A stretch of DNA of 64,000 nt from Escherichia coli (lineage in GTDB: Bacteria; Pseudomonadota; Gammaproteobacteria; Enterobacterales; Enterobacteriaceae): NCBI RefSeq assembly GCF_030013595.1, contig NZ_CP122768.1; one strand, given 5' to 3'. The notes under the pieces are model-generated. The model was not told where the DNA came from, ran no database searches, and worked only from the letters and a program-made list of their open reading frames with translations. The translations under genes were made by a program, and so were the position numbers. Of this stretch, positions 1,223 through 22,914 are shown piece after piece. Numbering within the stretch: the first letter of the stretch is position 1; each line of letters begins with the position of its first letter.

Positions 1223-1328
1223 AATTGCCTCGCTTAAGCACACGGATGAGAGACAGCCTCCTCTCCTCCGTGTGTTACTATAAAAGTTATCTCCCTTCTC
1301 GTTCATCGTTCCATATTTGAGAAACAGT

Positions 1329-1868
1329 ATGTCTTCCAGAGTTTTGACCCCGGACGTCGTTGGTATTGACGCCCTGGTACACGATCACCAAACCGTTCTG
1401 GCAAAAGCTGAAGGCGGTGTGGTTGCCGTATTTGCTAACAATGCCCCGGCGTTTTATGCCGTCACGCCTGCACGCCTGGCTGAACTGCTGGCGCTGGAAG
1501 AAAAGCTGGCGCGTCCGGGAAGCGATGTCGCTCTGGACGATCAACTCTATCAGGAACCGCAAGCTGCTCCCGTTGCTGTACCCATGGGGAAATTCGCCAT
1601 GTATCCGGACTGGCAACCCGATGCCGACTTTATCCGCCTGGCGGCGCTATGGGGCGTGGCACTAAGAGAGCCGGTGACCACCGAAGAACTGGCCTCATTC
1701 ATTGCCTACTGGCAGGCGGAAGGTAAAGTCTTTCACCATGTTCAGTGGCAACAAAAACTGGCGCGCAGCCTGCAAATCGGTCGTGCCAGCAACGGCGGAC
1801 TGCCGAAACGAGATGTGAATACGGTCAGTGAACCTGACAGCCAAATTCCACCAGGATTCAGAGGGTAA
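1329..1868 (+). CDS. dnaT: primosomal protein DnaT
   Basis: ORF 1317..1868; product from ATG 1329 ([18 protein letters not shown]...) is 179 aa and matches DnaT from memory; 2-nt gap to dnaC. Confidence 0.9.
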
Positions 1869-1870
1869 CG

Positions 1871-2608
1871 ATGAAAAACGTTGGCGACCTGATGCAACGC
1901 CTGCAAAAAATGATGCCTGCCCATATCAAACCTGCTTTCAAAACGGGTGAAGAACTACTGGCCTGGCAGAAAGAACAAGGGGCGATCCGCTCCGCCGCTC
2001 TCGAACGTGAAAATCGGGCGATGAAAATGCAGCGCACCTTTAACCGCTCCGGTATTCGTCCACTGCATCAGAACTGCTCCTTTGAGAACTATCGCGTTGA
2101 GTGTGAAGGGCAAATGAATGCGTTAAGCAAAGCGCGCCAGTATGTCGAAGAGTTTGACGGCAACATCGCCAGCTTCATCTTTTCTGGTAAGCCAGGAACC
2201 GGCAAAAACCATCTGGCGGCGGCAATCTGCAACGAGCTGCTGCTACGCGGTAAATCCGTATTGATCATCACCGTGGCCGATATTATGTCGGCGATGAAAG
2301 ATACCTTCAGGAATAGCGGTACCAGCGAAGAACAACTGCTTAACGATCTGAGCAATGTTGATCTGCTGGTGATCGATGAGATCGGCGTGCAAACCGAATC
2401 GAAATACGAAAAAGTGATCATCAACCAGATCGTCGATCGCCGCTCTTCTTCCAAACGCCCAACCGGGATGCTGACCAACAGTAATATGGAAGAGATGACC
2501 AAGTTGCTGGGCGAACGCGTGATGGACCGTATGCGCCTGGGTAACAGTTTGTGGGTGATCTTCAACTGGGATAGCTACCGTAGCCGGGTAACGGGTAAAG
2601 AGTATTAA
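1871..2608 (+). CDS. dnaC: DNA replication helicase loader DnaC
   Basis: 245-aa ORF with Walker A (GKPGTGKNHLAAA) and Walker B (LLVIDEIG); immediately downstream of dnaT. Confidence 0.95.
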   Translation: MKNVGDLMQRLQKMMPAHIKPAFKTGEELLAWQKEQGAIRSAALERENRAMKMQRTFNRSGIRPLHQNCSFENYRVECEGQMNALSKARQYVEEFDGNIASFIFSGKPGTGKNHLAAAICNELLLRGKSVLIITVADIMSAMKDTFRNSGTSEEQLLNDLSNVDLLVIDEIGVQTESKYEKVIINQIVDRRSSSKRPTGMLTNSNMEEMTKLLGERVMDRMRLGNSLWVIFNWDSYRSRVTGKEY

Positions 2609-2656
2609 TCCTCGTTTCTGGCGGTATACTGCGACACAATTCCACCTTGAGTAATG

Positions 2657-3151
2657 ATGATGAAAACTGTTAAACATCTTCTGTGCTGTGCCATTGCCGC
2701 CAGCGCATTAATTTCCACCGGGGTGCATGCTGCGTCCTGGAAAGATGCGCTCTCCAGCGCCGCCAGCGAACTTGGCAACCAAAACAGCACGACACAGGAA
2801 GGCGGTTGGTCGCTCGCGTCATTAACTAACTTGCTTAGCAGCGGAAACCAGGCCTTAAGCGCAGATAACATGAACAATGCCGCAGGCATTCTGCAATACT
2901 GCGCGAAGCAAAAGCTGGCTTCGGTAACCGATGCCGAAAACATCAAGAATCAGGTACTGGAAAAACTGGGCCTGAACAGTGAAGAGCAAAAAGAAGACAC
3001 CAATTATCTGGATGGCATTCAGGGTTTGCTGAAAACTAAAGATGGTCAGCAACTCAATCTGGATAATATCGGAACGACTCCGCTGGCAGAAAAGGTGAAA
3101 ACCAAAGCCTGCGATCTGGTGTTAAAGCAGGGGCTGAACTTCATTTCCTGA
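2657..3151 (+). CDS. yjjA: YjjA-like secreted protein of unknown function
   Basis: ORF 2654..3151 with signal-peptide-like N-terminus (MKTVKHLLCCAIAASALISTGVHA); position after dnaC. Confidence 0.75.
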   Translation: MMKTVKHLLCCAIAASALISTGVHAASWKDALSSAASELGNQNSTTQEGGWSLASLTNLLSSGNQALSADNMNNAAGILQYCAKQKLASVTDAENIKNQVLEKLGLNSEEQKEDTNYLDGIQGLLKTKDGQQLNLDNIGTTPLAEKVKTKACDLVLKQGLNFIS

Positions 3152-3403
3152 ACCGCGAAACGCCGCGTTTTAGCTGTTACCGGCTGACGCGGCTCTCTCC
3201 TGCCCTTTTCCCTGCTCCTGGACGGTTTTACCCCTGTTACACGGGAAGCGACCGCGATCAAAAAAGTCTGTTTATAAACTAATTCCTAACAACATCGCAT
3301 TTTTTTGACACTAGAATTGCAGCAATATGGCGACGCCATTACATTGTGCTTCTCAAAAAGCTTAAACGTTGGCTAAACGGCCCGGTTTAGTGAGGATCGC
3401 CCG

Positions 3404-5695
3404 TTGTCAGAACTACTCTCTTTCGCCCTTTTTCTCGCCTCTGTGCTGATTTACGCATGGAAAGCGGGACGTAACACCTGGTGGTTTGCAGCCACGTTAA
3501 CGGTGCTGGGGCTATTTGTCGTTTTAAATATCACCCTGTTTGCCAGCGACTATTTTACTGGCGATGGTATTAACGACGCGGTTCTCTATACCTTAACCAA
3601 CAGCCTGACCGGTGCTGGCGTCAGCAAATACATCCTGCCGGGTATCGGCATTGTGCTGGGGCTGACGGCGGTGTTCGGTGCGCTGGGCTGGATCCTGCGC
3701 CGTCGTCGTCATCATCCGCACCATTTTGGTTACAGCCTGCTGGCACTCTTACTGGCGCTGGGTTCAGTGGATGCCAGCCCGGCATTTCGTCAGATAACGG
3801 AACTGGTGAAATCCCAGTCACGCGACGGCGACCCGGACTTTGCGGCTTATTATAAAGAGCCGTCGAAAACTATCCCTGACCCGAAACTCAACCTGGTTTA
3901 TATCTACGGCGAAAGTCTCGAGCGGACCTATTTTGATAACGAAGCTTTCCCGGATCTCACGCCTGAACTGGGCGCGTTGAAAAATGAAGGCCTGGATTTC
4001 AGCCACACGCAGCAGCTGCCGGGAACGGATTACACGATTGCAGGCATGGTGGCTTCTCAGTGTGGCATACCGCTGTTTGCCCCCTTTGAAGGCAACGCCT
4101 CCGCCTCTGTCTCCAGCTTCTTCCCGCAGAACATCTGTCTGGGCGATATCCTGAAAAACTCGGGTTATCAGAACTATTTCGTGCAGGGCGCGAATCTGCG
4201 TTTTGCCGGTAAAGATGTGTTCCTGAAATCGCACGGCTTCGACCACTTATACGGCTCAGAAGAGCTGAAAAGCGTGGTGGCCGACCCGCACTATCGCAAC
4301 GACTGGGGATTCTACGACGATACCGTTCTCGATGAAGCGTGGAAAAAGTTTGAAGAGCTTTCCCGCTCAGGTCAGCGATTCTCACTGTTTACCCTGACAG
4401 TCGATACCCATCACCCGGATGGTTTTATCTCGCGTACCTGTAACCGCAAAAAATATGATTTTGACGGTAAGCCGAATCAGTCATTCAGCGCGGTAAGTTG
4501 CAGCCAGGAGAATATCGCGACGTTTATCAACAAAATCAAAGCGTCACCGTGGTTTAAAGATACCGTCATCGTCGTCTCTTCTGACCATTTAGCGATGAAC
4601 AACACGGCGTGGAAATACCTTAATAAACAGGATCGCAATAACCTGTTTTTTGTCATTCGTGGCGACAAGCCGCAGCAAGAGACGCTGGCAGTGAAGCGTA
4701 ACACGATGGATAACGGCGCGACGGTGCTGGACATTCTCGGTGGCGATAACTATCTCGGACTTGGTCGTAGCAGTTTATCCGGGCAGTCGATGTCGGAAAT
4801 CTTCCTCAATATCAAAGAGAAAACATTGGCGTGGAAGCCGGATATCATCCGCCTGTGGAAATTCCCTAAAGAGATGAAAGAGTTCACCATCGACCAGCAG
4901 AAAAACATGATTGCCTTCTCGGGTAGCCATTTCCGTTTGCCATTGCTGTTGCGGGTTTCAGACAAACGCGTGGAACCGCTGCCGGAAAGTGAATACTCAG
5001 CACCGCTGCGTTTCCAGCTGGCCGATTTCGCTCCACGCGACAATTTCGTCTGGGTTGACCGTTGCTACAAGATGGCACAACTCTGGGCTCCGGAACTGGC
5101 ACTTTCCACCGACTGGTGTGTCTCGCAAGGGCAGCTTGGCGGTCAGCAAATTGTCCAGCATGTTGACAAAACAACATGGAAGGGCAAAACGGTATTTAAA
5201 GATACGGTCATCGACATGGCGCGTTACAAAGGCAATGTCGATACGCTGAAGATTGTTGATAACGATATTCGCTACAAAGCCGACAGTTTCATCTTTAACG
5301 TCGCCGGTGCGCCAGAAGAGGTGAAACAGTTTAGCGGAATTTCCCGTCCGGAGTCGTGGGGCCGCTGGTCCAACGCTCAGCTGGGCGATGAAGTAAAAAT
5401 CGAGTACAAGCATCCGCTGCCGAAGAAATTTGACCTGGTGATTACCGCCAAAGCATACGGCAATAACGCCAGCCGTCCTATTCCGGTACGCGTAGGCAAT
5501 GAAGAACAAACCCTTGTGCTGGGCAATGAAGTGACCACCACCACACTGCATTTCGATAACCCAACCGATGCAGACACACTGGTAATTGTGCCGCCGGAAC
5601 CTGTCTCAACCAACGAAGGGAATATCCTCGGACACTCGCCGCGTAAGCTCGGGATCGGCATGGTGGAAATTAAAGTGGTAGAACGTGAAGGGTAA
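3404..5695 (+). CDS. opgB: phosphoglycerol transferase I (sulfatase-family membrane enzyme)
   Basis: 763-aa ORF with TTG start; N-terminal TM helices followed by a sulfatase-like domain; matches OpgB/MdoB from memory. Confidence 0.9.
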
Positions 5696-5709
5696 TTCCT
5701 GACTGATGT

Positions 5710-5738
5710 GTAGGTCGCATAAGGTGCGACCTACACAC
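5710..5738. terminator. stem-loop between convergent opgB and lgoD
   Basis: inverted repeat gtgtaggtcgca / tgcgacctacac with loop taagg, seen directly. Confidence 0.5.
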
Positions 5739-5833
5739 CTTCTCCGGCCTACAAAACATCATTGAGAAACAGAAAAAAACAGCGCCCAACACTTCCCCGG
5801 ACGCTGCATGGCAACTTTAATAATCTCGCCTTA

Positions 5834-6856
5834 TCAGAAAGTAATTACACCCTTAATCAACTCACGATTGTTAATCACATCGCGCTCGTAGGTTTCTGCC
5901 AGCGTGGCGAACGGATAGCGATGGGTTAACATCATGTCGGCAGTGATTTTCCCTTCCGCCATCAGTCGACCGACTTTAGCGAAATCTTCCGGCGTGGCGT
6001 TGCGGCTGCCCATCATCGTCGTTTCTTTTTTATGGAATTCCGGATCGGAGAACTGCAACTCACCTTTAAACAGGCCGACAAATACCACCGTGCCGCCGTG
6101 ACGAATCAGATTCACGGTGTTATTCATCGCATGTTGATTACCTGTCGCGTCGATCACTTTCTGCGCCAGAGAACCACCAAACTGCGCCCGCAGCTGCGCG
6201 TCAAAATCTTCGGCTGACGGGTCCAGTACAGGTAATTCCAGACGTGTTGCCACATGTTCACGGCGCGCCGGACTGGTATCCGCCACCACCACCTGTGCGC
6301 CATCGGCTTTAGCGATTGCCGCCGCGCCCAGACCGATTGGCCCCGCCCCGACCACCAGCACCTGCTCGCCGGGAGCAATGGCTGCGCGACGCACCGCATG
6401 AGCGCTAATAGCGAAAGGTTCAATCAATGCTGCCGCCTGCGGGTCAATACCATCTGCGGGCAAAATGTTCGCCACCGGCACGCTCAAATACTCACTAAAA
6501 CCGCCATCCTGATGCACGCCAATGACTGAAATTTTTTCACAGCAATTGGTACGCCCGCTTTTACACGCCGGGCATTGCTGACAGGCAACATAAGGGATCA
6601 CAGCAACTTGCTGACCATTTTTAAGATCAGCAATATTTTTACCCAGCCCAACAATCTCCCCACATATTTCATGGCCTAAAACCCGTGGATAACTAAAAAA
6701 TGGTTGATTTCCACCCCAGGCATGAATATCGGTACCGCAAATCCCGACAGACTTAATTTTTATTAATGCTTCATTGTCACCCGGAATAGGTATCTCGCGT
6801 TGTTTCCAGACTAATTCTTTCGGCTGCTGGCAAATTAAAACATTCATCGTAGACAT
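5834..6856 (-). CDS. lgoD: L-galactonate 5-dehydrogenase (Zn-dependent MDR family)
   Basis: ORF 5834..6871 minus; start MSTMNV at 6856 gives 340 aa; Zn-ADH motifs (GHEICGE, CxxCxxC) and Rossmann VVGAGPIG. Confidence 0.85.
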   Translation of the reverse strand: MSTMNVLICQQPKELVWKQREIPIPGDNEALIKIKSVGICGTDIHAWGGNQPFFSYPRVLGHEICGEIVGLGKNIADLKNGQQVAVIPYVACQQCPACKSGRTNCCEKISVIGVHQDGGFSEYLSVPVANILPADGIDPQAAALIEPFAISAHAVRRAAIAPGEQVLVVGAGPIGLGAAAIAKADGAQVVVADTSPARREHVATRLELPVLDPSAEDFDAQLRAQFGGSLAQKVIDATGNQHAMNNTVNLIRHGGTVVFVGLFKGELQFSDPEFHKKETTMMGSRNATPEDFAKVGRLMAEGKITADMMLTHRYPFATLAETYERDVINNRELIKGVITF

Positions 6857-6994
6857 GATTCGGCTCTCCATTTTTTGTTGCCTTAGATATCAATGAAAAT
6901 GAAAAATGGCAGCGGAACGGAAAATCTGTTTTGTGAAAACACACGCATAAAAATGTTTTAAATCGGGTTTTAATGGACTCACAAGGAGGAAAAT

Positions 6995-7909
6995 ATGAGT
7001 CGTTCACAAAATTTACGCCACAATGTGATTAACCAGGTCATTGATGATATGGCGCGGGGTCATATCCCTTCCCCACTTCCATCGCAAAGTGCGCTGGCGG
7101 AAATGTACAACATCAGCCGCACTACAGTGCGTCATATTCTCAGCCACTTACGCGAATGCGGCGTCTTAACGCAGGTTGGAAACGACTATGTTATTGCGCG
7201 TAAACCTGACCATGATGACGGTTTCGCCTGTACTACCGCTTCAATGAGTGAACAAAACAAAGTGTTTGAGCAGGCTTTTTTCACGATGATAAACCAGCGC
7301 CAGTTACGCCCTGGGGAAACTTTTTCTGAACTGCAACTGGCTCGGGCCGCGGGTGTCAGCCCGGTTGTAGTAAGAGAATATCTTTTAAAATTCGGCCGTT
7401 ATAATCTTATTCAAAGCGAAAAGCGCGGCCAGTGGAGCATGAAGCAATTCGATCAATCCTACGCCGAGCAGCTGTTTGAACTACGCGAAATGCTCGAAAC
7501 ACATTCACTTCAGCACTTTCTCAACCTGCCTGATCATGATCCCCGCTGGCTGCAGGCGAAAACCATGCTCGAACGTCATCGGCTACTGCGTGACAACATC
7601 GGCAATAGCTTTCGCATGTTCTCGCAACTTGACAGAGATTTTCACTCCTTACTGCTTTCAGCTGCCGACAATATCTTTTTTGATCAATCTCTTGAGATCA
7701 TCTCAGTCATCTTTCATTTTCACTATCAATGGGACGAAAGCGATCTTAAACAGCGCAATATCATTGCCGTCGATGAGCATATGACCATTCTCAGCGCTCT
7801 GATTTGCCGCAGTGACCTTGATGCCACCCTTGCGCTCCGTAACCATTTGAATTCAGCTAAACAATCAATGATTCGATCCATTAATGAGAACACGCGTTAT
7901 GCTCATTAA
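6995..7909 (+). CDS. lgoR: GntR/FadR-family transcriptional regulator of L-galactonate catabolism
   Basis: 304-aa ORF with N-terminal wHTH; divergent from lgoD. Confidence 0.85.
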   Translation: MSRSQNLRHNVINQVIDDMARGHIPSPLPSQSALAEMYNISRTTVRHILSHLRECGVLTQVGNDYVIARKPDHDDGFACTTASMSEQNKVFEQAFFTMINQRQLRPGETFSELQLARAAGVSPVVVREYLLKFGRYNLIQSEKRGQWSMKQFDQSYAEQLFELREMLETHSLQHFLNLPDHDPRWLQAKTMLERHRLLRDNIGNSFRMFSQLDRDFHSLLLSAADNIFFDQSLEIISVIFHFHYQWDESDLKQRNIIAVDEHMTILSALICRSDLDATLALRNHLNSAKQSMIRSINENTRYAH

Positions 7910-8123
7910 GTACGGATTAAAAACAGCAAACTATTAGCGGGTGCACGGTTTTATCAAAAGATAAATACCGGGAAATTCCCGCTTACCTATGCTCACAATC
8001 AGTCGACTAAAAATGTTTTTGTGAGCGGTAGTAAAGTCCTAAAACTTTAACCTGCCGTTAATGTCAACCTTGCGTAATGCACAATTACGTAAACAATTAA
8101 AATTATAAATACAGGAGTCCGGC

Positions 8124-9485
8124 GTGGAAAAAGAAAATATCACCTTCGATCCGCGTTCTTCATTTACTCCATCTTCATCGGCAGATATTCCCGTGCCACC
8201 AGATGGATTAGTTCAACGCAGTACCCGAATTAAACGCATTCAAACCACCGCCATGTTGTTATTATTTTTTGCGGCGGTAATCAATTATCTCGACCGCAGT
8301 TCGCTGTCGGTAGCAAATTTAACGATTCGTGAAGAATTGGGATTAAGTGCCACCGAAATCGGCGCTTTGCTCTCCGTGTTTTCACTCGCTTACGGGATTG
8401 CGCAACTTCCTTGCGGCCCACTATTGGATCGTAAAGGCCCACGCCTGATGCTGGGACTGGGGATGTTCTTCTGGTCACTGTTCCAGGCCATGTCTGGCAT
8501 GGTGCACAGCTTTACGCAGTTCGTGTTGGTGCGTATTGGTATGGGGATTGGTGAAGCGCCGATGAACCCATGCGGTGTAAAAGTCATTAACGACTGGTTC
8601 AACATCAAAGAGCGCGGACGCCCGATGGGCTTCTTCAACGCAGCTTCTACCATTGGCGTTGCCGTAAGCCCACCGATTCTTGCGGCGATGATGCTGGTGA
8701 TGGGCTGGCGCGGGATGTTTATTACCATTGGTGTACTGGGGATTTTTCTCGCCATCGGCTGGTATATGCTCTATCGCAACCGCGAGCACGTAGAACTGAC
8801 TGCCGTTGAACAAGCTTATCTCAATGCAGGTAGCGTCAATGCCCGCCGAGATCCGCTCAGTTTTGCCGAATGGCGCAGCCTGTTCCGTAACCGCACAATG
8901 TGGGGAATGATGCTCGGATTCAGTGGCATCAACTACACTGCGTGGCTGTATCTGGCCTGGCTTCCTGGTTACCTGCAAACAGCCTATAACCTGGATTTAA
9001 AAAGCACAGGATTGATGGCGGCTATCCCTTTCCTGTTTGGGGCTGCCGGGATGCTGGTCAACGGTTACGTTACCGACTGGCTGGTCAAAGGGGGAATGGC
9101 TCCGATTAAAAGCCGTAAGATCTGCATTATTGCCGGGATGTTCTGTTCTGCCGCCTTTACGCTGGTCGTACCGCAAGCGACAACATCCATGACGGCGGTT
9201 CTGCTGATTGGCATGGCACTGTTCTGTATTCACTTTGCCGGAACATCCTGCTGGGGCTTGATCCACGTCGCAGTTGCTTCTCGCATGACTGCATCGGTGG
9301 GCAGTATCCAGAACTTTGCCAGCTTCATCTGCGCCTCTTTCGCGCCGATCATTACTGGTTTTATTGTTGATACCACCCACTCATTCCGTCTGGCACTAAT
9401 CATCTGCGGTTGCGTCACCGCAGCGGGGGCACTGGCGTACATCTTCCTGGTTCGTCAGCCGATCAACGACCCGCGTAAAGATTAA
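8124..9485 (+). CDS. lgoT: MFS transporter, L-galactonate:H+ symporter
   Basis: 453-aa ORF (GTG start), 12-TM MFS-like hydrophobicity; synteny with lgoR. Confidence 0.85.
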   Translation: MEKENITFDPRSSFTPSSSADIPVPPDGLVQRSTRIKRIQTTAMLLLFFAAVINYLDRSSLSVANLTIREELGLSATEIGALLSVFSLAYGIAQLPCGPLLDRKGPRLMLGLGMFFWSLFQAMSGMVHSFTQFVLVRIGMGIGEAPMNPCGVKVINDWFNIKERGRPMGFFNAASTIGVAVSPPILAAMMLVMGWRGMFITIGVLGIFLAIGWYMLYRNREHVELTAVEQAYLNAGSVNARRDPLSFAEWRSLFRNRTMWGMMLGFSGINYTAWLYLAWLPGYLQTAYNLDLKSTGLMAAIPFLFGAAGMLVNGYVTDWLVKGGMAPIKSRKICIIAGMFCSAAFTLVVPQATTSMTAVLLIGMALFCIHFAGTSCWGLIHVAVASRMTASVGSIQNFASFICASFAPIITGFIVDTTHSFRLALIICGCVTAAGALAYIFLVRQPINDPRKD

Positions 9486-9493
9486 ACTCCCTA

Positions 9494-9528
9494 TGCCCGA
9501 TAACATTTTGCTTATCGGGCATTTTTAT
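9494..9528 (+). terminator. rho-independent terminator after lgoT
   Basis: hairpin atgcccgataa / ttatcgggcat followed by ttttta. Confidence 0.6.
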
Positions 9529-9533
9529 GGCGA

Positions 9534-11198
9534 TTAAAACGTTTCCCAGTTCTCCCCGCTATCTGCCACGGCCATTTTACGCGGCGTAGCTGGCGTCACG
9601 GTTTTTACTACAGCCGATGTTTCACGCTGCTGTTGCTGCTGTTGCTGAATCCGGAACACTGCCACAGCTTCGGTCAGGCGACTGGCCTGCTCTTCCAGCG
9701 CGGCAGCGGCGGCGGCAGATTCTTCCACCAGCGCGGCGTTCTGTTGAGTTACCCGGTCCATCTCAGCAACCGCTAATCCAACCTGATCGATACCACGGCT
9801 CTGCTCATCAGAAGCAGAAGCAATTTCGCCCATAATGTCCGTCACGCGGGTCACGGCACTGACAATCTCCGCCATTGTTTCCCCTGCGCTTTCGACCAGC
9901 GTAGAGCCAACATCTACTTTCCCCACCGAGTCTTCAATCAGGCTTTTAATTTCACGAGCCGCCTGAGCGCTGCGCTGGGCCAGATTACGCACTTCACCCG
10001 CGACCACCGCAAAACCGCGCCCTTGCTCACCCGCGCGCGCTGCTTCAACCGCCGCGTTCAAAGCCAGAATATTGGTCTGGAAGGCAATGCCGTCAATTAC
10101 GCTGATAATATCGGCGATTTTCTGCGAACTGGTGGAGATATCGCGCATAGTCTGCACCACGTTATCTACCACTTTGCCGCCGCGTTGCGCCGTTTCGGAA
10201 GCACTTAACGCCAGGTGGCTGGCCTGACGCGCATTTTCGGCGTTCTGCTTCACCGTTGCGGTCAGTTGCTCCATGCTGGCTGCCGTCTCTTCCAGCGAAG
10301 CGGCCTGTTGCTCGGTGCGCGAAGAGAGATCGTTATTGCCGGTGGCGATTTCGCTGGCACCGCTATAGATGGCATTGGCCCCGTTGCGCACATCACCGAC
10401 GGTACGCATCAGCTCTCCCTGCATATGGCGCAAACTCTCTGCCAGTTGCCCCATCTCATTAGAGCCATCCACCTCAATCGGTTTCACCAGATCGCCGCCT
10501 GCAATATGACGAATGCTGTCAATCAGGCGATTCATTGGCGCTACCAACGAGGCTTTAATACCGAACCAGACGGCGAAGATGACCGCCAGTACGACGATCA
10601 TCACGCCCACCAGAATCCACATCGCCTGGCTGTAGGAGGCATTATTATCGCTGACGGCGATATCATAGAGCCGATCGTTTTGCTCCATGTAAGCCACATA
10701 CTGCTTCTCGAAACCGTCCTGATATCCCTGGGTTGGCTGATCAAAGAACTCGTTGATTTTGCCTGCACCTAACAGTTGGATCAGCTCCGCCAGCGCATTG
10801 TGATAAATATCGTAATTACGTTTGATCTCTGCCGCTGCGGCGGTGCTCTGACGCGGGTCACGCGGCAACGCTTCGTAATCCGCCCAGTTTTTTTCCGCCT
10901 GTTTCAGCGAAATACTGGCACTCTGCATTAGCTCAGCAACGGTTGAACCGCTACCAATATTATTCTGATCCATCATGTAGCGGATACCCGCGCGGTTGAG
11001 GGTGTTACGCGTCTGCAACAACGCAACCCAGCTGCCATTCAGCGTGGATTGCTGCTGGCGAATGGTTTGTAAAACAGTGAAATTTTCTTTGTCATTCTTT
11101 AAGGCATTAAAGAACAGACCGCCTGATGTCAGTTGTAAAAGGCCAAAAACGGCCAAAACCAGCAGTAAGCTGGTCACAATTTTGATACGTTTTAACAT
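9534..11198 (-). CDS. tsr: methyl-accepting chemotaxis protein I (serine chemoreceptor)
   Basis: 554-aa ORF with HAMP, methylation helices and C-terminal NWETF pentapeptide; poly-Q tract near the C-terminus. Confidence 0.95.
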
Positions 11199-11228
11199 GG
11201 TTTCTCTTTCCTGTGGACCGATGCAAGA

Positions 11229-11255
11229 TTTTCGGCCTGGAAAGGAAAAACTTTA
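11229..11255 (-). promoter_or_regulatory. sigma-28 (FliA)-type promoter upstream of tsr
   Basis: minus-strand TAAAGTTT, 11-nt spacer, GCCGAAAA, read directly; matches the class III flagellar promoter consensus TAAAGTTT-N11-GCCGATAA. Confidence 0.5.
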
Positions 11256-11341
11256 TGAATATCCCGCGGAGATTACGCCGAGTAATTTTATTCACACTCT
11301 GAATTTAAAAAACCATTATTTACATAAATTATTCACAATAT

Positions 11342-11367
11342 AAATATGTGATATGAATCACATATTT
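11342..11367. promoter_or_regulatory. CRP-binding site in the btsT upstream region
   Basis: perfect palindrome aaatatGTGATatgaaTCACAtattt (TGTGA-N6-TCACA core at 11347..11362). Confidence 0.55.
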
Positions 11368-11390
11368 ATCGTCACTTAAACGACGCCTTT

Positions 11391-11418
11391 GCCGCTCAAC
11401 CGCAAAACTGACCGCTTA
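11391..11418 (+). promoter_or_regulatory. putative BtsR (YehT, LytTR-type) direct-repeat operator
   Basis: direct repeats GCCGCTCA and ACCGCTTA 12 nt apart, resembling the ACC(G/A)CT(C/T)A repeats reported for the yjiY promoter. Confidence 0.4.
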
Positions 11419-11574
11419 CATCCCTAAAATAACCACTCAGTTATTTACCTTACTTTACGCGCGCGTAACTCTGGCAACATCACTGCAGGATAGCGGTCAA
11501 TTTACCTCCTCAAACGCAACGCAAACCTAGAACGGCTTCGGCCAACTATTAATCAATACATGCCAGGTTTTACT

Positions 11575-13725
11575 ATGGATACTAAAAAGATATTCAAGCA
11601 CATACCCTGGGTGATTCTCGGAATCATCGGTGCATTCTGCCTCGCGGTAGTTGCATTACGTCGGGGGGAGCACGTCAGCGCCCTGTGGATCGTGGTCGCC
11701 TCTGTGTCGGTGTATCTGGTGGCTTATCGCTACTACAGTCTGTACATCGCCCAGAAGGTAATGAAACTCGACCCCACGCGCGCGACGCCTGCGGTTATTA
11801 ACAACGACGGTCTGAACTATGTTCCGACCAACCGTTACGTGTTGTTTGGTCACCACTTCGCCGCTATCGCCGGTGCTGGTCCGCTGGTTGGTCCGGTGCT
11901 CGCCGCGCAGATGGGCTACCTGCCTGGCACGCTGTGGCTGCTGGCGGGGGTAGTACTGGCCGGTGCGGTTCAGGACTTTATGGTGCTGTTTATCTCCTCT
12001 CGCCGTAACGGCGCATCTCTCGGTGAGATGATCAAAGAAGAGATGGGACCAGTACCGGGGACTATCGCGCTGTTTGGCTGTTTCTTAATCATGATCATCA
12101 TCCTCGCCGTTCTGGCGCTGATTGTGGTTAAAGCCCTGGCCGAAAGTCCGTGGGGTGTCTTCACCGTTTGCTCAACCGTACCAATTGCGCTGTTTATGGG
12201 TATCTACATGCGCTTTATCCGTCCGGGGCGTGTGGGTGAAGTCTCTGTCATTGGTATCGTGCTGCTGGTTGCCTCTATCTACTTCGGTGGCGTGATTGCT
12301 CACGATCCGTACTGGGGTCCGGCACTGACCTTTAAAGACACCACCATTACCTTCGCGCTGATTGGCTATGCGTTTGTTTCCGCACTGCTGCCGGTGTGGC
12401 TGATCCTCGCACCGCGCGACTATCTGGCAACCTTCCTGAAAATCGGTGTTATCGTCGGCCTGGCGCTGGGTATCGTGGTGCTGAACCCGGAACTGAAAAT
12501 GCCTGCGATGACCCAGTACATTGACGGTACTGGCCCGCTGTGGAAAGGCGCTCTGTTCCCGTTCCTGTTCATCACCATCGCCTGTGGTGCGGTATCTGGC
12601 TTCCACGCACTGATCTCTTCCGGTACGACGCCGAAACTGCTGGCTAATGAAACCGACGCGCGTTTCATTGGCTACGGCGCAATGCTGATGGAGTCCTTCG
12701 TGGCGATTATGGCGCTGGTTGCAGCGTCCATCATCGAACCGGGTCTTTACTTCGCGATGAACACCCCGCCTGCGGGCCTTGGCATCACCATGCCTAACCT
12801 GCATGAAATGGGTGGCGAGAACGCGCCGATCATCATGGCGCAGTTGAAAGACGTTACCGCACACGCGGCGGCGACCGTCAGCTCCTGGGGCTTCGTGATT
12901 TCGCCAGAGCAGATCCTGCAAACCGCGAAAGACATTGGTGAGCCTTCTGTCCTGAACCGTGCAGGTGGTGCGCCGACACTGGCGGTAGGTATCGCTCACG
13001 TGTTCCACAAAGTGCTGCCGATGGCTGACATGGGCTTCTGGTATCACTTCGGTATTCTGTTCGAAGCCCTGTTCATCCTGACCGCGCTGGATGCCGGTAC
13101 CCGTTCTGGCCGCTTTATGCTGCAAGACCTGCTGGGTAACTTCATCCCGTTCCTGAAAAAAACCGACTCTCTGGTTGCTGGTATCATCGGTACTGCGGGC
13201 TGTGTGGGTCTGTGGGGCTACCTGCTGTATCAGGGCGTGGTCGATCCGCTGGGCGGCGTTAAGAGCCTGTGGCCGCTGTTCGGTATCTCCAACCAGATGC
13301 TGGCCGCCGTGGCGCTGGTACTGGGTACCGTTGTGCTGATTAAGATGAAGCGCACCCAATACATCTGGGTAACTGTTGTTCCGGCTGTATGGCTGCTTAT
13401 CTGCACCACCTGGGCGCTGGGCCTGAAACTGTTCAGTACCAACCCGCAGATGGAAGGCTTCTTCTACATGGCAAGCCAGTACAAAGAGAAGATTGCTAAC
13501 GGTACTGACCTGACGGCGCAGCAGATTGCCAACATGAACCACATCGTTGTGAATAACTACACCAACGCAGGTCTGAGTATTCTGTTCCTGATCGTGGTGT
13601 ACAGCATCATCTTCTATGGTTTCAAAACCTGGCTTGCGGTGCGTAACAGCGACAAACGTACTGACAAAGAAACACCGTACGTTCCAATCCCGGAAGGCGG
13701 CGTGAAGATCTCTTCGCACCACTAA
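11575..13725 (+). CDS. btsT: pyruvate/H+ symporter, CstA family
   Basis: ORF 11560..13725; start MDTKKIF at 11575 gives 716 aa; polytopic membrane protein. Confidence 0.9.
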   Translation: MDTKKIFKHIPWVILGIIGAFCLAVVALRRGEHVSALWIVVASVSVYLVAYRYYSLYIAQKVMKLDPTRATPAVINNDGLNYVPTNRYVLFGHHFAAIAGAGPLVGPVLAAQMGYLPGTLWLLAGVVLAGAVQDFMVLFISSRRNGASLGEMIKEEMGPVPGTIALFGCFLIMIIILAVLALIVVKALAESPWGVFTVCSTVPIALFMGIYMRFIRPGRVGEVSVIGIVLLVASIYFGGVIAHDPYWGPALTFKDTTITFALIGYAFVSALLPVWLILAPRDYLATFLKIGVIVGLALGIVVLNPELKMPAMTQYIDGTGPLWKGALFPFLFITIACGAVSGFHALISSGTTPKLLANETDARFIGYGAMLMESFVAIMALVAASIIEPGLYFAMNTPPAGLGITMPNLHEMGGENAPIIMAQLKDVTAHAAATVSSWGFVISPEQILQTAKDIGEPSVLNRAGGAPTLAVGIAHVFHKVLPMADMGFWYHFGILFEALFILTALDAGTRSGRFMLQDLLGNFIPFLKKTDSLVAGIIGTAGCVGLWGYLLYQGVVDPLGGVKSLWPLFGISNQMLAAVALVLGTVVLIKMKRTQYIWVTVVPAVWLLICTTWALGLKLFSTNPQMEGFFYMASQYKEKIANGTDLTAQQIANMNHIVVNNYTNAGLSILFLIVVYSIIFYGFKTWLAVRNSDKRTDKETPYVPIPEGGVKISSHH

Positions 13726-13733
13726 CCGTGTTT

Positions 13734-13761
13734 AGCCCCGCTTCGGCGGGGCTTTGTTCTT
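13734..13761 (+). terminator. rho-independent terminator after btsT
   Basis: hairpin agccccgc-ttcg-gcggggct followed by a T-rich tract. Confidence 0.6.
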
Positions 13762-13774
13762 ATCAGAGTGAACT

Positions 13775-13978
13775 ATGTTTGGTAACTTAGGACAGGCAAA
13801 AAAATATCTCGGCCAGGCGGCGAAGATGTTGATTGGCATTCCAGACTACGACAACTACGTCGAGCATATGAAGACCAACCATCCCGACAAGCCGTACATG
13901 AGCTATGAAGAATTCTTCCGCGAACGCCAGAACGCGCGCTACGGCGGCGATGGTAAAGGCGGTATGCGCTGTTGTTAA
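13775..13978 (+). CDS. yjiX: small CstA-associated protein (YbdD/YjiX family)
   Basis: 67-aa ORF directly downstream of btsT, conserved pairing with CstA-family transporters. Confidence 0.8.
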
Positions 13979-13988
13979 TGGAGAGAGC

Positions 13989-14945
13989 ATGAACCCGATT
14001 GCAGTGACCCTACTCACCGGTTTTTTAGGCGCGGGCAAAACTACCCTGCTGCGCCATATTCTTAACGAACAACACGGCTACAAGATTGCCGTGATTGAAA
14101 ACGAATTCGGCGAAGTCTCCGTTGATGATCAACTGATTGGCGACCGCGCCACGCAGATCAAAACGCTGACCAACGGCTGCATCTGCTGTTCGCGCTCCAA
14201 CGAGCTGGAGGACGCGCTACTCGACCTGCTGGACAATCTCGACAAGGGCAATATTCAGTTCGACCGTCTGGTCATTGAATGCACCGGCATGGCCGATCCT
14301 GGCCCGATTATTCAGACCTTTTTCTCCCATGAGATTTTATGCCAGCGCTACCTGCTGGACGGCGTGATTGCGCTGGTGGATGCGGTACATGCCGATGAGC
14401 AGATGAACCAGTTCACCATCGCCCAGTCCCAGGTTGGCTACGCCGACCGTATTCTGCTGACTAAAACCGACGTCGCAGGCGAAGCAGAGAAACTGCGTGA
14501 ACGTCTGGCACGCATCAACGCCCGCGCGCCGGTCTACACCGTCACCCACGGCGACATCGACCTGGGCCTGTTGTTCAACACCAACGGTTTTATGCTGGAA
14601 GAAAACGTCGTCAGCACCAAACCGCGTTTCCACTTTATCGCGGATAAACAAAACGATATTTCGTCGATTGTGGTGGAACTGGATTACCCGGTAGATATCA
14701 GCGAAGTTTCCCGCGTGATGGAAAACCTGCTGCTGGAATCGGCAGATAAACTGCTGCGTTACAAAGGGATGCTGTGGATTGACGGCGAACCTAACCGCCT
14801 GCTGTTCCAGGGCGTCCAGCGCCTCTACAGCGCCGACTGGGACAGGCCGTGGGGTGATGAAACACCGCATAGCACAATGGTGTTTATCGGGATTCAGCTG
14901 CCGGAGGATGAGATTCGGGCGGCGTTTGCGGGGTTGAGGAAGTAA
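13989..14945 (+). CDS. yjiA: COG0523 metal-chaperone GTPase
   Basis: 318 aa from MNPIAV at 13989; Walker A GFLGAGKTT and CxCC motif (GCICCS). Confidence 0.85.
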   Translation: MNPIAVTLLTGFLGAGKTTLLRHILNEQHGYKIAVIENEFGEVSVDDQLIGDRATQIKTLTNGCICCSRSNELEDALLDLLDNLDKGNIQFDRLVIECTGMADPGPIIQTFFSHEILCQRYLLDGVIALVDAVHADEQMNQFTIAQSQVGYADRILLTKTDVAGEAEKLRERLARINARAPVYTVTHGDIDLGLLFNTNGFMLEENVVSTKPRFHFIADKQNDISSIVVELDYPVDISEVSRVMENLLLESADKLLRYKGMLWIDGEPNRLLFQGVQRLYSADWDRPWGDETPHSTMVFIGIQLPEDEIRAAFAGLRK

Positions 14946-14949
14946 GGGG

Positions 14950-14990
14950 TTATGGGCCGGATAAGGCGCAGCCGCATCCGGCCTGATATT
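14950..14990. repeat. REP element between yjiA and mrr
   Basis: gccggataaggcgcagccgcatccggcc palindromic unit. Confidence 0.5.
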
Positions 14991-15905
14991 TCACTCAAAA
15001 TAGTCCATATCCAGTTTCGGCACCTTCAACAAACGTGAAGAAACCCCTACTTCGTTTTCGATCATTAAGTGCACCAGGCGTTCCCCATCAACCAACACCA
15101 TACCCTCAACGGATTGGGCAAAGTCACGCGCCTGAGAAGTAAATCCAGAAGTGGTAATAAACACCCCACGTTTCGCTTTTTGCCCAGCCAGTGCGCCGTA
15201 AAATGCCTGTAATTCTGGCCTGCCTACAGTATTCTGCCAACGTTTTGCCTGAACATAAACTTTCTCCAGGCCAAGTTTATCAAGCGATATCACACCATCG
15301 ATGCCACCATCTCCAGTACCGCCAACACGCTGCAAATCATCACGGTGGCCGCCATACCCCAGGCGATGCAAAACATCCAGAACAATGACTTCAAAGCGCG
15401 AAGGAGAAACCTGCAATAAGTTTTCCAGAACCTCATCAGCCACCGCATCACGAAGCTCTTTTAGCGCCTGATCTAACCGATCGTCCGGGCTGCTCTTTGC
15501 AAGTTCTTCATGATCGGGAGAGTCGGCTTTCGGATCTAAATCGACGGCATCCGGCCGTGACTTAAGTTTGACATTCACAAAATCGAAGGCCAGATGGTTC
15601 GTCTCCTGCTCCGTCATTGGCTGGGGATGAGACGCAACCCAGTCAAAACCCGCAGGAGTCAGGCACCATTTGCCACGCGACAAACTTTGCGACAACCCGG
15701 CACGTTTTAAACGGTCATGCGCCCAGCCTGCACGATTTTTATAAACAAGTTGTCCGCTGGTAATGACTTTCGCTCGCTGGCTGTCATCCAGTCCTAATGC
15801 ATCCGCGGCAGCCTCATGAACATCACGCGCGGCTGCACCTTCCGGTTTTGTCGCCAGATAACGCAGAACAGGTTCAATAAATTTGTCATAGGTTGGAACC
15901 GTCAT
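14991..15905 (-). CDS. mrr: Mrr type IV methylation-dependent restriction endonuclease
   Basis: 304-aa ORF; matches Mrr from memory; adjacent to hsdR. Confidence 0.9.
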   Translation of the reverse strand: MTVPTYDKFIEPVLRYLATKPEGAAARDVHEAAADALGLDDSQRAKVITSGQLVYKNRAGWAHDRLKRAGLSQSLSRGKWCLTPAGFDWVASHPQPMTEQETNHLAFDFVNVKLKSRPDAVDLDPKADSPDHEELAKSSPDDRLDQALKELRDAVADEVLENLLQVSPSRFEVIVLDVLHRLGYGGHRDDLQRVGGTGDGGIDGVISLDKLGLEKVYVQAKRWQNTVGRPELQAFYGALAGQKAKRGVFITTSGFTSQARDFAQSVEGMVLVDGERLVHLMIENEVGVSSRLLKVPKLDMDYFE

Positions 15906-16092
15906 AGTACATCCTTGCAGAATCAGGTAGATGTTTTTCGGCTACTATAACACTACCAAAATAGGCGAACACGTTAGAAATGAGTCAGTTGCTGTGACCG
16001 TGGTCATTGCCCGGAAAGGTACAGAAAGCTAAGATGCGATGTTATGGGCCTTAAATATTTGGACAGGCCCACACAGCAATGGATTAATAACA

Positions 16093-19000
16093 ATGATGAA
16101 TAAATCCAATTTTGAATTCCTGAAGGGCGTCAACGACTTCACTTATGCCATCGCCTGTGCGGCGGAAAATAACTACCCCGATGATCCCAACACGACGCTG
16201 ATTAAAATGCGTATGTTTGGCGAAGCCACAGCGAAACATCTTGGTCTGTTACTCAACATCCCCTCTTGTGAGAATCAACACGATCTCCTGCGCGAACTTG
16301 GCAAAATCGCCTTCGTTGATGACAACATTCTCTCTGTATTCCACAAATTACGCCGCATTGGTAACCAGGCGGTGCACGAATATCATAACGATCTCGACGA
16401 TGCCCAGATGTGCCTGCGGCTAGGCTTCCGTCTGGCTGTCTGGTACTACCGTCTGGTCACCAAAGATTATGACTTCCCGGTGCCGGTATTTGTGTTGCCA
16501 GAACGTGGCGAGAACCTCTATCACCAGGAAGTGCTGACGCTAAAACAACAGCTTGAACAGCAGGTGCGAGAAAAAGCGCAAACTCAGGCAGAAGTCGAAG
16601 CGCAACAGCAGAAGCTGGTTGCTCTGAACGGCTATATCGCCATTCTGGAAGGCAAACAGCAGGAAACAGAAGCGCAAACCCAGGCTCGCCTTGCGGCGCT
16701 GGAAGCACAGCTTGCCGAGAAGAACGCGGAACTGGCAAAACAGACCGAACAGGAACGTAAGGCTTACCACAAAGAAATTACCGATCAGGCCATCAAGCGC
16801 ACACTCAACCTTAGCGAAGAAGAGAGTCGCTTCCTGATTGACGCGCAACTGCGTAAAGCAGGCTGGCAGGCCGATAGCAAAACCCTGCGCTTCTCCAAAG
16901 GCGCACGCCCGGAACCCGGCGTCAATAAAGCCATTGCCGAATGGCCGACCGGGAAAGATGAAACGGGTAATCAGGGTTTTGCGGATTATGTGCTGTTTGT
17001 CGGCCTCAAGCCCATCGCGGTGGTAGAGGCGAAACGTAAAAATATCGACGTTCCCGGCAAGCTCAATGAGTCGTATCGCTACAGCAAATGCTTCGATAAT
17101 GGCTTCCTGCGGGAAACCTTGCTTGAGCATTACTCGCCGGATGAAGTGCATGAAGCGGTGCCGGAGTATGAAACCAGCTGGCAGGACACCAGCGGCCAAC
17201 AACGGTTTAAAATCCCCTTCTGCTACTCGACCAACGGGCGCGAATACCGCGCAGCAATGAAAACTAAAAGCGGCATCTGGTATCGCGACGTGCGTGATAC
17301 CCGTAATATGTCGAAAGCCTTACCCGAGTGGCATCGCCCGGAAGAGCTGCTGGAAATGCTCGGCAGTGAACCGCAAAAACAGAATCAGTGGTTTGCCGAT
17401 AACCCTGGCATGAGCGAGCTGGGCCTGCGTTATTATCAGGAAGATGCCGTCCGCGCGGTTGAAAAGGCAATCGTCAAGGGTCAACAAGAGATCCTGCTGG
17501 CGATGGCGACCGGTACCGGTAAAACCCGTACCGCAATCGCCATGATGTTCCGCCTGATCCAGTCCCAGCGTTTTAAACGCATTCTCTTCCTTGTGGATCG
17601 CCGTTCTCTTGGCGAGCAGGCGCTGGGGGCGTTTGAAGATACGCGTATTAACGGCGACACTTTCAACAGCATTTTCGACATTAAAGGGCTGACGGATAAA
17701 TTCCCGGAAGACAGCACCAAAATTCACGTTGCCACCGTACAGTCGCTGGTGAAACGCACCCTGCAATCGGATGAACCGATGCCGGTGGCCCGTTACGACT
17801 GTATCGTCGTCGATGAAGCGCATCGCGGCTATATTCTCGATAAAGAGCAGACCGAAGGCGAGCTGCAGTTCCGCAGCCAGCTGGATTATGTCTCTGCCTA
17901 CCGTCGCATTCTCGATCATTTCGATGCGGTAAAAATCGCCCTCACCGCCACCCCGGCGCTGCATACGGTGCAGATTTTCGGTGAGCCGGTTTACCGTTAT
18001 ACCTACCGGACCGCAGTTATCGACGGTTTTCTGATCGACCAGGATCCGCCGATCCAAATCACCACCCGCAACGCCCAGGAGGGAGTTTATCTCTCCAAAG
18101 GCGAGCAGATAGAGCGCATCAGCCCGCAGGGGGAAGTGATCAACGACACCCTGGAAGACGATCAGGATTTTGAGGTCGCCGACTTTAACCGTGGCCTGGT
18201 GATCCCGGCGTTTAACCGCGCCGTCTGTAACGAACTCACCAACTACCTTGATCCGACCGGGTCGCAAAAAACGCTGGTCTTCTGTGTCACTAATGCTCAT
18301 GCCGATATGGTGGTGGAAGAGCTGCGTACCGCATTCAAGAAAAAGTATCCGCAACTGGAGCACGACGCGATCATCAAGATCACCGGTGATGCCGATAAAG
18401 ACGCGCGCAAAGTGCAGACCATGATCACCCGTTTCAATAAAGAGCGGCTGCCCAATATCGTGGTAACCGTCGACCTGCTGACGACCGGCGTCGATATTCC
18501 GTCGATCTGTAATATCGTGTTCCTGCGTAAAGTACGCAGCCGTATTCTGTACGAGCAGATGAAAGGCCGCGCCACGCGCTTGTGCCCGGACGTGAATAAA
18601 ACCAGCTTTAAGATTTTCGACTGTGTCGATATCTACAGCACACTGGAGAGCGTCGACACCATGCGTCCGGTGGTGGTGCGTCCGAAGGTGGAATTACAAA
18701 CGCTGGTCAACGAAATTACCGATTCAGAAACCTATAAAATTACCGAAGCGGATGGCCGTAGCTTTGCCGAGCACAGCCATGAACAATTGGTGGCGAAGCT
18801 CCAGCGCATCATCGGCCTGGCCACGTTTAACCGTGACCGCAGCGAAACGATAGATAAACAGGTGCGTCGTCTGGATGAGCTATGCCAGGACGCGGCGGGA
18901 GTGAACTTTAACGGCTTCGCCTCGCGCCTGCGGGAAAAAGGGCCGCACTGGAGCGCCGAAGTCTTTAACAAACTGCCTGGCTTTATCGCCCGTCTGGAAA

Positions 19001-19605
19001 AGCTGAAAACCGACATCAACAACCTGAACGATGCGCCGATCTTCCTCGATATCGACGATGAAGTGGTGAGCGTAAAATCGCTGTACGGTGATTACGACAC
19101 GCCGCAGGATTTCCTCGAAGCCTTTGACTCGCTGGTGCAACGTTCCCCGAACGCACAGCCGGCATTGCAGGCGGTGATTAATCGCCCGCGCGATCTCACC
19201 CGTAAAGGGCTGGTCGAGCTACAGGAGTGGTTTGACCGCCAGCACTTTGAGGAATCTTCCCTGCGCAAAGCATGGAAAGAGACGCGCAATGAAGATATCG
19301 CCGCCCGGCTGATTGGTCATATTCGCCGTGCAGCGGTAGGCGATGCGCTGAAACCGTTTGAGGAACGTGTCGATCACGCGCTGACGCGCATTAAGGGCGA
19401 AAACGACTGGAGCAGCGAGCAATTAAGCTGGCTCGATCGTTTAGCGCAGGCGCTGAAAGAGAAAGTGGTGCTCGACGACGATGTCTTCAAAACCGGCAAC
19501 TTCCACCGTCGCGGCGGGAAGGCGATGCTGCAAAGAACCTTTGACGATAATCTCGACAACCTGCTCGATAAATTCAGCGATTATATCTGGGACGAGCTGG
19601 CCTGA
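16093..19605 (+). CDS. hsdR: type I restriction enzyme R subunit
   Basis: ORF 16039..19605; start MMNKS at 16093 gives 1170 aa; helicase motifs (MATGTGKT, VVDEAHR) and coiled-coil QQ-rich segment. Confidence 0.95.
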   Translation: MMNKSNFEFLKGVNDFTYAIACAAENNYPDDPNTTLIKMRMFGEATAKHLGLLLNIPSCENQHDLLRELGKIAFVDDNILSVFHKLRRIGNQAVHEYHNDLDDAQMCLRLGFRLAVWYYRLVTKDYDFPVPVFVLPERGENLYHQEVLTLKQQLEQQVREKAQTQAEVEAQQQKLVALNGYIAILEGKQQETEAQTQARLAALEAQLAEKNAELAKQTEQERKAYHKEITDQAIKRTLNLSEEESRFLIDAQLRKAGWQADSKTLRFSKGARPEPGVNKAIAEWPTGKDETGNQGFADYVLFVGLKPIAVVEAKRKNIDVPGKLNESYRYSKCFDNGFLRETLLEHYSPDEVHEAVPEYETSWQDTSGQQRFKIPFCYSTNGREYRAAMKTKSGIWYRDVRDTRNMSKALPEWHRPEELLEMLGSEPQKQNQWFADNPGMSELGLRYYQEDAVRAVEKAIVKGQQEILLAMATGTGKTRTAIAMMFRLIQSQRFKRILFLVDRRSLGEQALGAFEDTRINGDTFNSIFDIKGLTDKFPEDSTKIHVATVQSLVKRTLQSDEPMPVARYDCIVVDEAHRGYILDKEQTEGELQFRSQLDYVSAYRRILDHFDAVKIALTATPALHTVQIFGEPVYRYTYRTAVIDGFLIDQDPPIQITTRNAQEGVYLSKGEQIERISPQGEVINDTLEDDQDFEVADFNRGLVIPAFNRAVCNELTNYLDPTGSQKTLVFCVTNAHADMVVEELRTAFKKKYPQLEHDAIIKITGDADKDARKVQTMITRFNKERLPNIVVTVDLLTTGVDIPSICNIVFLRKVRSRILYEQMKGRATRLCPDVNKTSFKIFDCVDIYSTLESVDTMRPVVVRPKVELQTLVNEITDSETYKITEADGRSFAEHSHEQLVAKLQRIIGLATFNRDRSETIDKQVRRLDELCQDAAGVNFNGFASRLREKGPHWSAEVFNKLPGFIARLEKLKTDINNLNDAPIFLDIDDEVVSVKSLYGDYDTPQDFLEAFDSLVQRSPNAQPALQAVINRPRDLTRKGLVELQEWFDRQHFEESSLRKAWKETRNEDIAARLIGHIRRAAVGDALKPFEERVDHALTRIKGENDWSSEQLSWLDRLAQALKEKVVLDDDVFKTGNFHRRGGKAMLQRTFDDNLDNLLDKFSDYIWDELA

Positions 19606-19805
19606 CACGTATACACTTCATCCTTCAGGCTGCCTCTGCGTTGGCTGCGCTCGTTCACCCCGGTCACGTACTTCTGTACGCTCCCGGGGATTCACTCACT
19701 TGCCGCCTTGATGCAACCTGAATGATTTTGTGTATATTACCCTCGGCAATTTCTTCTTCTGCGGCCCGATGAATTTGGGCCGCTGCTTAATTTACGGAAC
19801 TCACA

Positions 19806-22760: not shown

Positions 22761-22772
22761 TCATTATTTTCT

Positions 22773-22800
22773 GGCGCACCTTTCCGGTGCGCTTTTTATT
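22773..22800 (+). terminator. rho-independent terminator after hsdS
   Basis: hairpin ggcgcacc-tttcc-ggtgcgc followed by tttttatt. Confidence 0.6.
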
Positions 22801-22911: not shown

Positions 22912-22914
22912 TAT

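Follow-up and report, generated by a model that had tools for sequence, protein, structure and literature searches.

High-abundance chemoreceptors such as Tar and Tsr end in a pentapeptide of the form xWxxF, which binds both CheR and CheB (PMC7390727, PMC4692393). The pentapeptide is connected to the signaling bundle by a tether of about 30-35 residues that is described as unstructured (PMC7390727). The experimental evidence for disorder of this linker is EPR on Tar, as cited in PMC7390727 and PMC10561060 from Bartelli & Hazelbauer 2011 and Li & Hazelbauer 2006. In Tsr, residue 517 is the end of the conserved part of the protein (PMC4692393), and I517 is taken as the first residue of the tether (PMC10561060). 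The receptors of a single genome have tethers of 29 to 39 residues, and the sole conserved tether feature reported is a pattern of charge (bioRxiv 10.1101/2024.03.07.583918). When the Tar tether was set to 22, 29, 34 or 46 residues, the CheR distribution shifted linearly by 0.128 +/- 0.048 nm per residue; the shorter tether of Tsr has been attributed to methylation-site geometry in this receptor (PMC10561060).

The second class of systems relevant here is the bacterial coding VNTRs, in which perfect repeats whose unit length is divisible by 3 change through slipped-strand mispairing. We analyzed a 64-kb stretch of Escherichia coli DNA (the window) that contains a short repeat at the beginning of the Tsr tether, encoding seven consecutive glutamines (Q7). 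In our assessment, this tract is very probably the prevailing allele of a short in-frame VNTR in tsr, which has retained the ancestral length, gives rise to forms with four or 10 glutamines by slippage, and is near-neutral. The gene, the tether, the pentapeptide, the exact protein sequence and the kind of variation are all already known. A limited literature search found no published description of the tsr repeat polymorphism, its matches being unrelated uses of "TSR" for a reagent or primer and of "QQQQ" for a methylation state; this points only weakly to a polymorphism not yet reported.

The tsr gene and its glutamine tract

The features of the gene are listed in Table 1. The encoded protein has the TarH-HAMP-MCPsignal architecture of Tsr/MCP-I, with Pfam domains at residues 1-176 (TarH, E 9e-55), 217-263 (HAMP) and 327-484 (MCPsignal, E 2e-62), and terminates in SGENWETF, which includes the xWxxF pentapeptide. 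The gene is 97.8% identical in DNA to MG1655 tsr over its full length and is convergent with lgoT, the same arrangement as in K-12. By both sequence and genomic position, it is the ortholog of K-12 tsr, and serine sensing is predicted from this orthology. RefSeq entry WP_000919571.1 is the identical protein, and the annotation is tsr in 5,385 of the 5,426 complete E. coli genomes.

Table 1. Positions of the tsr features within the window.
Feature	Position	Strand	Basis
tsr CDS (554 aa + stop; serine chemoreceptor / methyl-accepting chemotaxis protein I)	9534..11198	-	ORF, Pfam, tsr annotation
Ala run, residues 495-500, GCC/GCT/GCG codons, methylation helix	9699..9716	-	TRF period 6 at 9700-9718
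C-terminal tether, I517-E549, 33 aa, non-conserved linker from signaling bundle to pentapeptide	9552..9650	-	
Gln tract, seven codons CAG CAA CAG CAG CAA CAG CAG, residues 518-524	9627..9647	-	
9-bp unit copy 1 (CAGCAACAG)	9639..9647	-	
9-bp unit copy 2 (CAGCAACAG)	9630..9638	-	
Partial third copy CAG, end of tract	9627..9629	-	
NWETF pentapeptide, residues N550-F554	9537..9551	-	sequence; CheR/CheB docking from literature

The preliminary description of this locus had reported seven consecutive glutamine codons, and reading the minus strand confirms the observation. The tract reads ctgctgttgctgctgttgctg on the plus strand; on the coding strand, an ATT codon (Ile, 9648..9650) comes before it and CGT GAA (Arg-Glu, 9621..9626) after it. 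It forms a perfect 9-bp tandem, with two head-to-tail copies of the unit completed by a final CAG. Tandem Repeats Finder delimits the repeat as 9626..9647, with a period of 9, 2.4 copies and 100% matches. No other perfect period-9 span of at least 21 nt is present within the window, and none was generated in 200 Markov-1 simulated windows. Given the CAG/CAA usage of tsr, however, codon choice alone would render a Q7 peptide perfectly periodic at 9 nt with a probability of ~0.11, so duplication is not proven by the periodicity itself. It is the series of alleles with four, seven and 10 codons described below that identifies 9 bp as the mutational unit. Scans of both strands for RNA families and for promoter-like and terminator-like sites gave no match overlapping the tract. 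The sole Rfam line concerns the region upstream of tsr, where Pistol is listed at chance level (E 0.99, 20 bits vs a threshold of 34.5).

Short repeats are sometimes miscalled, and the tract length might in principle reflect a sequencing or assembly error at a low-complexity repeat. We regard this as extremely improbable. At 21 nt, the repeat is only a small fraction of the length of any read, and the frame stays open as far as NWETF. Furthermore, two separate assemblies of pig-fecal E. coli from the UK are 100.0% identical to the window over its initial 25 kb, a stretch that contains the tract, and the identical tract is found in 3,801 independent complete genomes.

Across the window protein and 80 orthologs, conservation is lost beyond I517 and returns only at R540/K541 and at N550-F554. 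Together with the literature boundary at I517, this makes the tract the first element of the tether. The preliminary description had likewise assigned the gene to tsr and placed the tract in the NWETF tether, and the domains, orthology and conservation all bear it out. NWETF itself is present in 78 of the 80 orthologs, and the 33-residue tether of the window protein has the size expected of the non-conserved linker of ~30-35 residues. An AF2 monomer computed from the ortholog alignment has a low mean pLDDT of 65.5 and shows residues 528-554 as coil with pLDDT below 50. The same model draws the last bundle helix through the glutamine tract to residue 528 with pLDDT of only ~50-67, so the tract may perhaps not be a simple random coil and might instead be a short helical extension.

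Tract length in E. coli and related species

The tsr gene of K-12 MG1655 is 1656 bp long and encodes 551 residues, with the tract CAG CAA CAG CAG. The preliminary description had given four glutamines and 551 vs 554 residues for K-12, and was correct on both. The alignment of the window gene to that of K-12 contains a clean 9-bp gap and no other difference at the tract. Other substitutions are few, and include the region near the C-terminus, where the K-12 PAAP/SEENWETF differs from the window sequence.

The distribution of tract lengths was determined in the complete E. coli genomes (5,426, with tsr present in 5,385), using a short query specific to each allele, for which full coverage requires a tract of matching length (Table 2). 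The 10-codon count is derived, and two routes agree on it: partial matches to the Q7 query (3,876 - 3,801) and identity bands (1,283 - 1,208). Tracts of this length were also read directly in strain HS, which has a perfect Q10, and in 2014C-3338, which has QQQQQQQQHQ. The latter, a His-interrupted derivative of QQQQQHQ, is found in 7 genomes. The allele classes total within ~5 of 5,385, and other tract lengths can therefore account for at most a handful of genomes.

Table 2. Tract alleles among complete E. coli genomes with tsr.
Allele	Genomes	Share of 5,385
Perfect Q7	3,801	70.6%
K-12-type, four Gln	1,208	22.4%
QQQQQHQ (CAG to CAT, codon 6)	250	4.6%
10 codons	about 75	1.4%
QQEQQRQ, seven-codon length, imperfect	about 40 (41 in the 90-95% identity band)	0.7%
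Divergent N50-type allele	6	0.1%

Seven glutamines had been described as an expansion, which would make the window an unusual departure from a tract that normally has four. The familiar references do give this impression, as MG1655, W3110, BL21, B and 042 all have four glutamines and the Tsr literature is almost all K-12. Against the census, the reading is very unlikely. Q7 is carried by 70% of complete genomes (3,801 of 5,426, vs 1,208 with four glutamines) and the seven-codon length by ~76% of E. coli tsr genes. Reference proteins with seven glutamines, which the preliminary description itself had named as evidence that would overturn its reading, include those of SE11 (NC_011415.1) and of O157:H7 strains, and WP_000919571.1, the exact window protein, occurs on at least 1,000 contigs. 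O55:H7 strains and one O25b:H4-ST131 strain also carry Q7. Orthologs of equal length and the QQEQQRQ allele of E. coli, which keeps an imperfect seven-codon motif, also argue against an expansion. The term "expanded" is true only relative to K-12 and has the direction wrong. On the sequence comparison, the K-12 allele is the minority and apparently contracted form.

The direction of change was assessed with Tsr orthologs from 80 other Enterobacteriaceae species, in which the tether was taken to begin at the residue equivalent to I517 and to end immediately ahead of the pentapeptide. The modal ortholog has 554 residues and a 33-residue tether (47 of 80). Tethers of 32-34 residues are found in 71 of the 80 species, with a range of 30-36 and one outlier of 48. 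At the tract, the orthologs have a seven-codon motif, QQxQQRx. Salmonella and Citrobacter have QQEQQRA, and two Escherichia lineages outside E. coli have QQTQQRQ or QQAQQRQ. In Salmonella, Citrobacter, Enterobacter and cryptic Escherichia alike, the motif resembles the window tract in its position right after VFRI, its seven codons and the protein length of 554 residues, but it is broken by E/T/A and R and is imperfect as a DNA repeat. None of the 80 orthologs has a run of more than 3 consecutive glutamines, and in this comparison the homopolymeric, slippage-prone form is specific to E. coli.

E. coli TUM9803 links the two forms. Its tract, CAG CAA GAG CAG CAA CGC CAG, has the seven-codon length within an otherwise typical E. 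coli linker. Three nucleotides separate this QQEQQRQ type from the perfect repeat, and the scaffold CAG CAA xxx CAG CAA xxx CAG is already there. The deepest E. coli tsr branches also carry seven glutamines, though the tree of 19 sequences is shallow and was used as weak support. Based on the ortholog length, the TUM9803 allele and these branches, we take seven codons as the ancestral state and four and 10 glutamines as derived. A history in which QQQQQRARE lost 9 bp to give four glutamines and was then re-duplicated to Q7 is less parsimonious and less likely, being unneeded given the TUM9803 allele. The window thus carries the modal allele, of ancestral length, which points to no unusual event in this genome.

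Whole-unit changes on shared backgrounds

Recurrence was examined with synthetic Tsr proteins in which the glutamine count was varied and all else kept constant, each looked up as an exact sequence among ~15 billion proteins. The background of the window protein is found with four glutamines on 154 contigs, with seven on at least 1,000, with nine on 17 and with 10 on 129; versions with five, six or eight glutamines are absent from that collection. Some of the 154 contigs are labelled O157:H7. The K-12 background is present with four glutamines on at least 1,000 contigs, with seven on 8 (WP_395491712.1) and with 10 on 1. At the DNA level, a single identical 3' SNP haplotype carries four glutamines in CX12, seven in SE11 and 10 in HS. 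Since both backgrounds and the haplotype are shared across lengths, many length changes must have taken place, overwhelmingly by one 9-bp unit. The natural alleles differ by whole units (four, seven and 10 codons) and the changes recur on the same background, which upholds the short tandem-repeat length polymorphism proposed in the preliminary description. With the tract masked, the 19 full-length tsr genes form mosaic haplotypes and a shallow gene tree, and some of the changes that look recurrent may have come from recombination over very short distances and not from new slippage events.

We propose the following course of events. The ancestral imperfect seven-codon motif would have become a perfect tandem through three nucleotide changes or by homogenization of the units. 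The perfect repeat would then misalign in replication or recombination, and strand slippage or unequal exchange between units is the probable mechanism. The products observed are of two kinds: K-12, B and 042 have lost one unit, leaving four glutamines and a 30-residue tether, and HS has gained one, giving 10 glutamines and a 36-residue tether. Every allele read across the tract keeps the frame through NWETF. For this reason, the repeat is not a phase-variable contingency locus that turns expression on and off by frameshift or promoter spacing.

The Ala run located 50 bp upstream of the tract (Table 1) serves as an internal control. It comprises 6 alanines in both the window and K-12 and is invariant or nearly so in 81 sequences. 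The run is flanked by E493 and E502, which we take to be methylation sites 4 and 5 of Tsr. A form with 8 alanines is present in cluster member P0010, and one with 4 solely in strain A34 (1 of 5,426 genomes); as a singleton, the latter was rejected as a second common polymorphism. The near-fixation of a repeat in a structured helix supports the view that changes in length are tolerated in the glutamine tract.

Functional effect and comparison with known systems

Tract length probably has a near-neutral effect. The added or lost residues are in-frame and uncharged and lie in a non-conserved segment, so the receptor would stay functional, with a small effect on adaptation being probable. As glutamine is uncharged, the charge pattern reported as conserved among tethers would not be altered by tract length. 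If the slope measured for Tar is extrapolated to Tsr, one 9-bp unit would shift CheR by roughly 0.4 nm. The clustering of ortholog tethers at 32-34 residues hints at stabilizing selection, under which gaining or losing 3 residues may be less than fully neutral.

The same clustering, by suggesting that length may matter, lends some weight to a different reading, in which the repeat is a selected tuning knob: tethers of 30, 33 and 36 residues would set the reach of CheR and CheB along their own receptor and to its neighbors, and slippage would shift the kinetics or precision of serine adaptation heritably and reversibly. The predicted displacement of CheR, the recurrence of one protein background with four, seven and 10 glutamines, and the 22% share of the four-glutamine allele, which is not rare, are compatible with such a role. 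We nevertheless consider it unlikely. With 1.3 to 3.3 copies of the 9-bp unit, the slippage rate is expected to be low vs true contingency loci, and one unit is predicted to move CheR by only ~4% of the peak position reported for Tar, roughly 10.5 nm (PMC10561060). Inspection of the census match lists reveals no apparent association with phenotype, ecology or host, and drift with clonal expansion would produce such allele frequencies too. If the length did act as a switch, natural E. coli lineages would differ in chemotactic behavior through one locus, and decades of K-12 Tsr work would describe a short-tether minority state.

The preferred reading, a near-neutral VNTR with seven codons as its ancestral length, has its own implications. 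For this genome there is no special consequence, as it encodes the standard E. coli Tsr. The K-12 protein used in almost all experiments would have a contracted tether of 30 residues, whereas about three quarters of E. coli and most of the sampled Enterobacteriaceae species have 33, which nearly equals the 34 of Tar. The geometric rationale for a shorter Tsr tether (PMC10561060) fails for most E. coli, because 30 residues is the minority allele and the usual values are 33 and 34. The natural series of 30-, 33- and 36-residue tethers on otherwise identical proteins could be used to test the tethered-enzyme model directly.

Compared with K-12 Tsr (MCP-I, UniProt MCP1_ECOLI, 551 aa), the window protein shares the lgoT-side locus, the domain architecture and NWETF; K-12 has one 9-bp unit fewer, giving four glutamines and a 30-residue tether as opposed to seven and 33. 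Like other bacterial coding VNTRs, the tsr repeat is perfect, has a unit length divisible by 3, and shows recurrent whole-unit alleles. It differs from them in its very low copy number (1.3, 2.3 and 3.3 units) and in having no on/off switching; a literature search found no use of it in a typing scheme. Finally, the segment corresponds to the described Tar/Tsr linker in being non-conserved, ~30-35 residues long and able to hold CheR and CheB near the methylation sites. In the literature, however, this tether has a fixed length (30 residues in Tsr and 34 in Tar; PMC10561060), while in E. coli Tsr the repeat at its proximal end makes it polymorphic within the species, at 30, 33 or 36 residues.

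Codon repeats within tsr

In addition to length variation, the seven-codon glutamine tract exhibits a histidine interruption in some genomes. This interruption, a CAT codon, occurs in a seven-codon tract (QQQQQHQ) in 250 genomes and in a 10-codon tract (QQQQQQQQHQ) in seven; interrupted alleles were taken from the compared tsr loci L102/L088 (E. coli 2014C-3338), L106, and L107. Because CAT is found in tracts of both lengths, the additional repeat unit in QQQQQQQQHQ is a gain 5' of the histidine, on an allele that was already interrupted.

The gene also contains a second short codon repeat, consisting of six Ala codons in the window (Table). The repeat is reduced to four Ala codons in strain A34 (tsr of 1659 bp, locus L002), and this form is a singleton among the 5,426 complete E. 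coli genomes. Eight Ala residues are present in P0010, a 556-residue cluster member represented on five contigs. The Ala repeat falls between E493 and E502 in the structured methylation helix, and a two-residue indel here should therefore shift the helix register.

Coordinates of the features discussed in and around tsr
Feature	Sequence	Position	Strand	Description
Hairpin	window	9493..9522		11-bp stem (ATGCCCGATAA...TTATCGGGCAT), then T run; in the lgoT-tsr gap
Ala-codon repeat	window	9699..9716	-	six Ala codons, GCC/GCT/GCG; Tsr residues 495-500
btsT	window	11560..13725
tsr of E. coli N50	locus L086 (from NZ_CM165889.1)	280..1941		553 aa

Disrupted and divergent alleles

In the tsr gene of E. 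coli MDK9L1 (locus L003), a T run near the start has lost one base, at about position 41 of the coding sequence (GGTTTTGG to GGTTTGG). This tsr is annotated as a frameshifted pseudogene, and its Q7 tract is still intact. No match to at least 80% of tsr is found in 41 of the 5,426 complete genomes. In strain a7 the match is limited to the first 212 bases of the gene, and the matching part carries the annotation 'Tar ligand binding domain-containing protein'. These results point to disruption or loss of tsr in a small minority of E. coli.

A strongly divergent allele is present in six genomes. The N50 protein is identical to the window's Tsr at 510 of 555 aligned positions (stop codons counted); it reads QQEQQRQRE at the tract and has a linker unlike that of the window, ALAVNSVAPVAPRKIAVADSGDNWETF. 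The N50-type allele looks like an import or a very old allele.

Neighborhood of tsr

Hits covering at least 80% of window positions 1..25000 in one place, a region that features hsdR and hsdM (type I restriction-modification), opgB, and btsT around tsr, are found in only 884 of the 5,426 genomes, so parts of the region are variable. The best matches, HCP5S3_I2 and LCP30S3_I5, span 25,002 bases at 100.0% identity to the 25,000-base query, indicating a small indel somewhere.

Upstream of tsr, btsT is the next large ORF in the window; in A34, CX12, ECCRA-119, JNEC-KY174, and HS, hpaR lies upstream at a distance of about 120 bp. For the downstream gene, loci L086, L090, L098, and L100 were set against window positions 8124..9485. 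In the window, K-12, SE11, and others this gene is lgoT, which encodes an MFS transporter; strains 1579, 405, PK8217, and N50 have a TRAP transporter permease gene in its place. In the window lgoT and tsr are convergent, ending at 9485 and 9534, respectively, and are separated by a 48-bp gap. The hairpin within this gap is probably a bidirectional terminator common to both genes.
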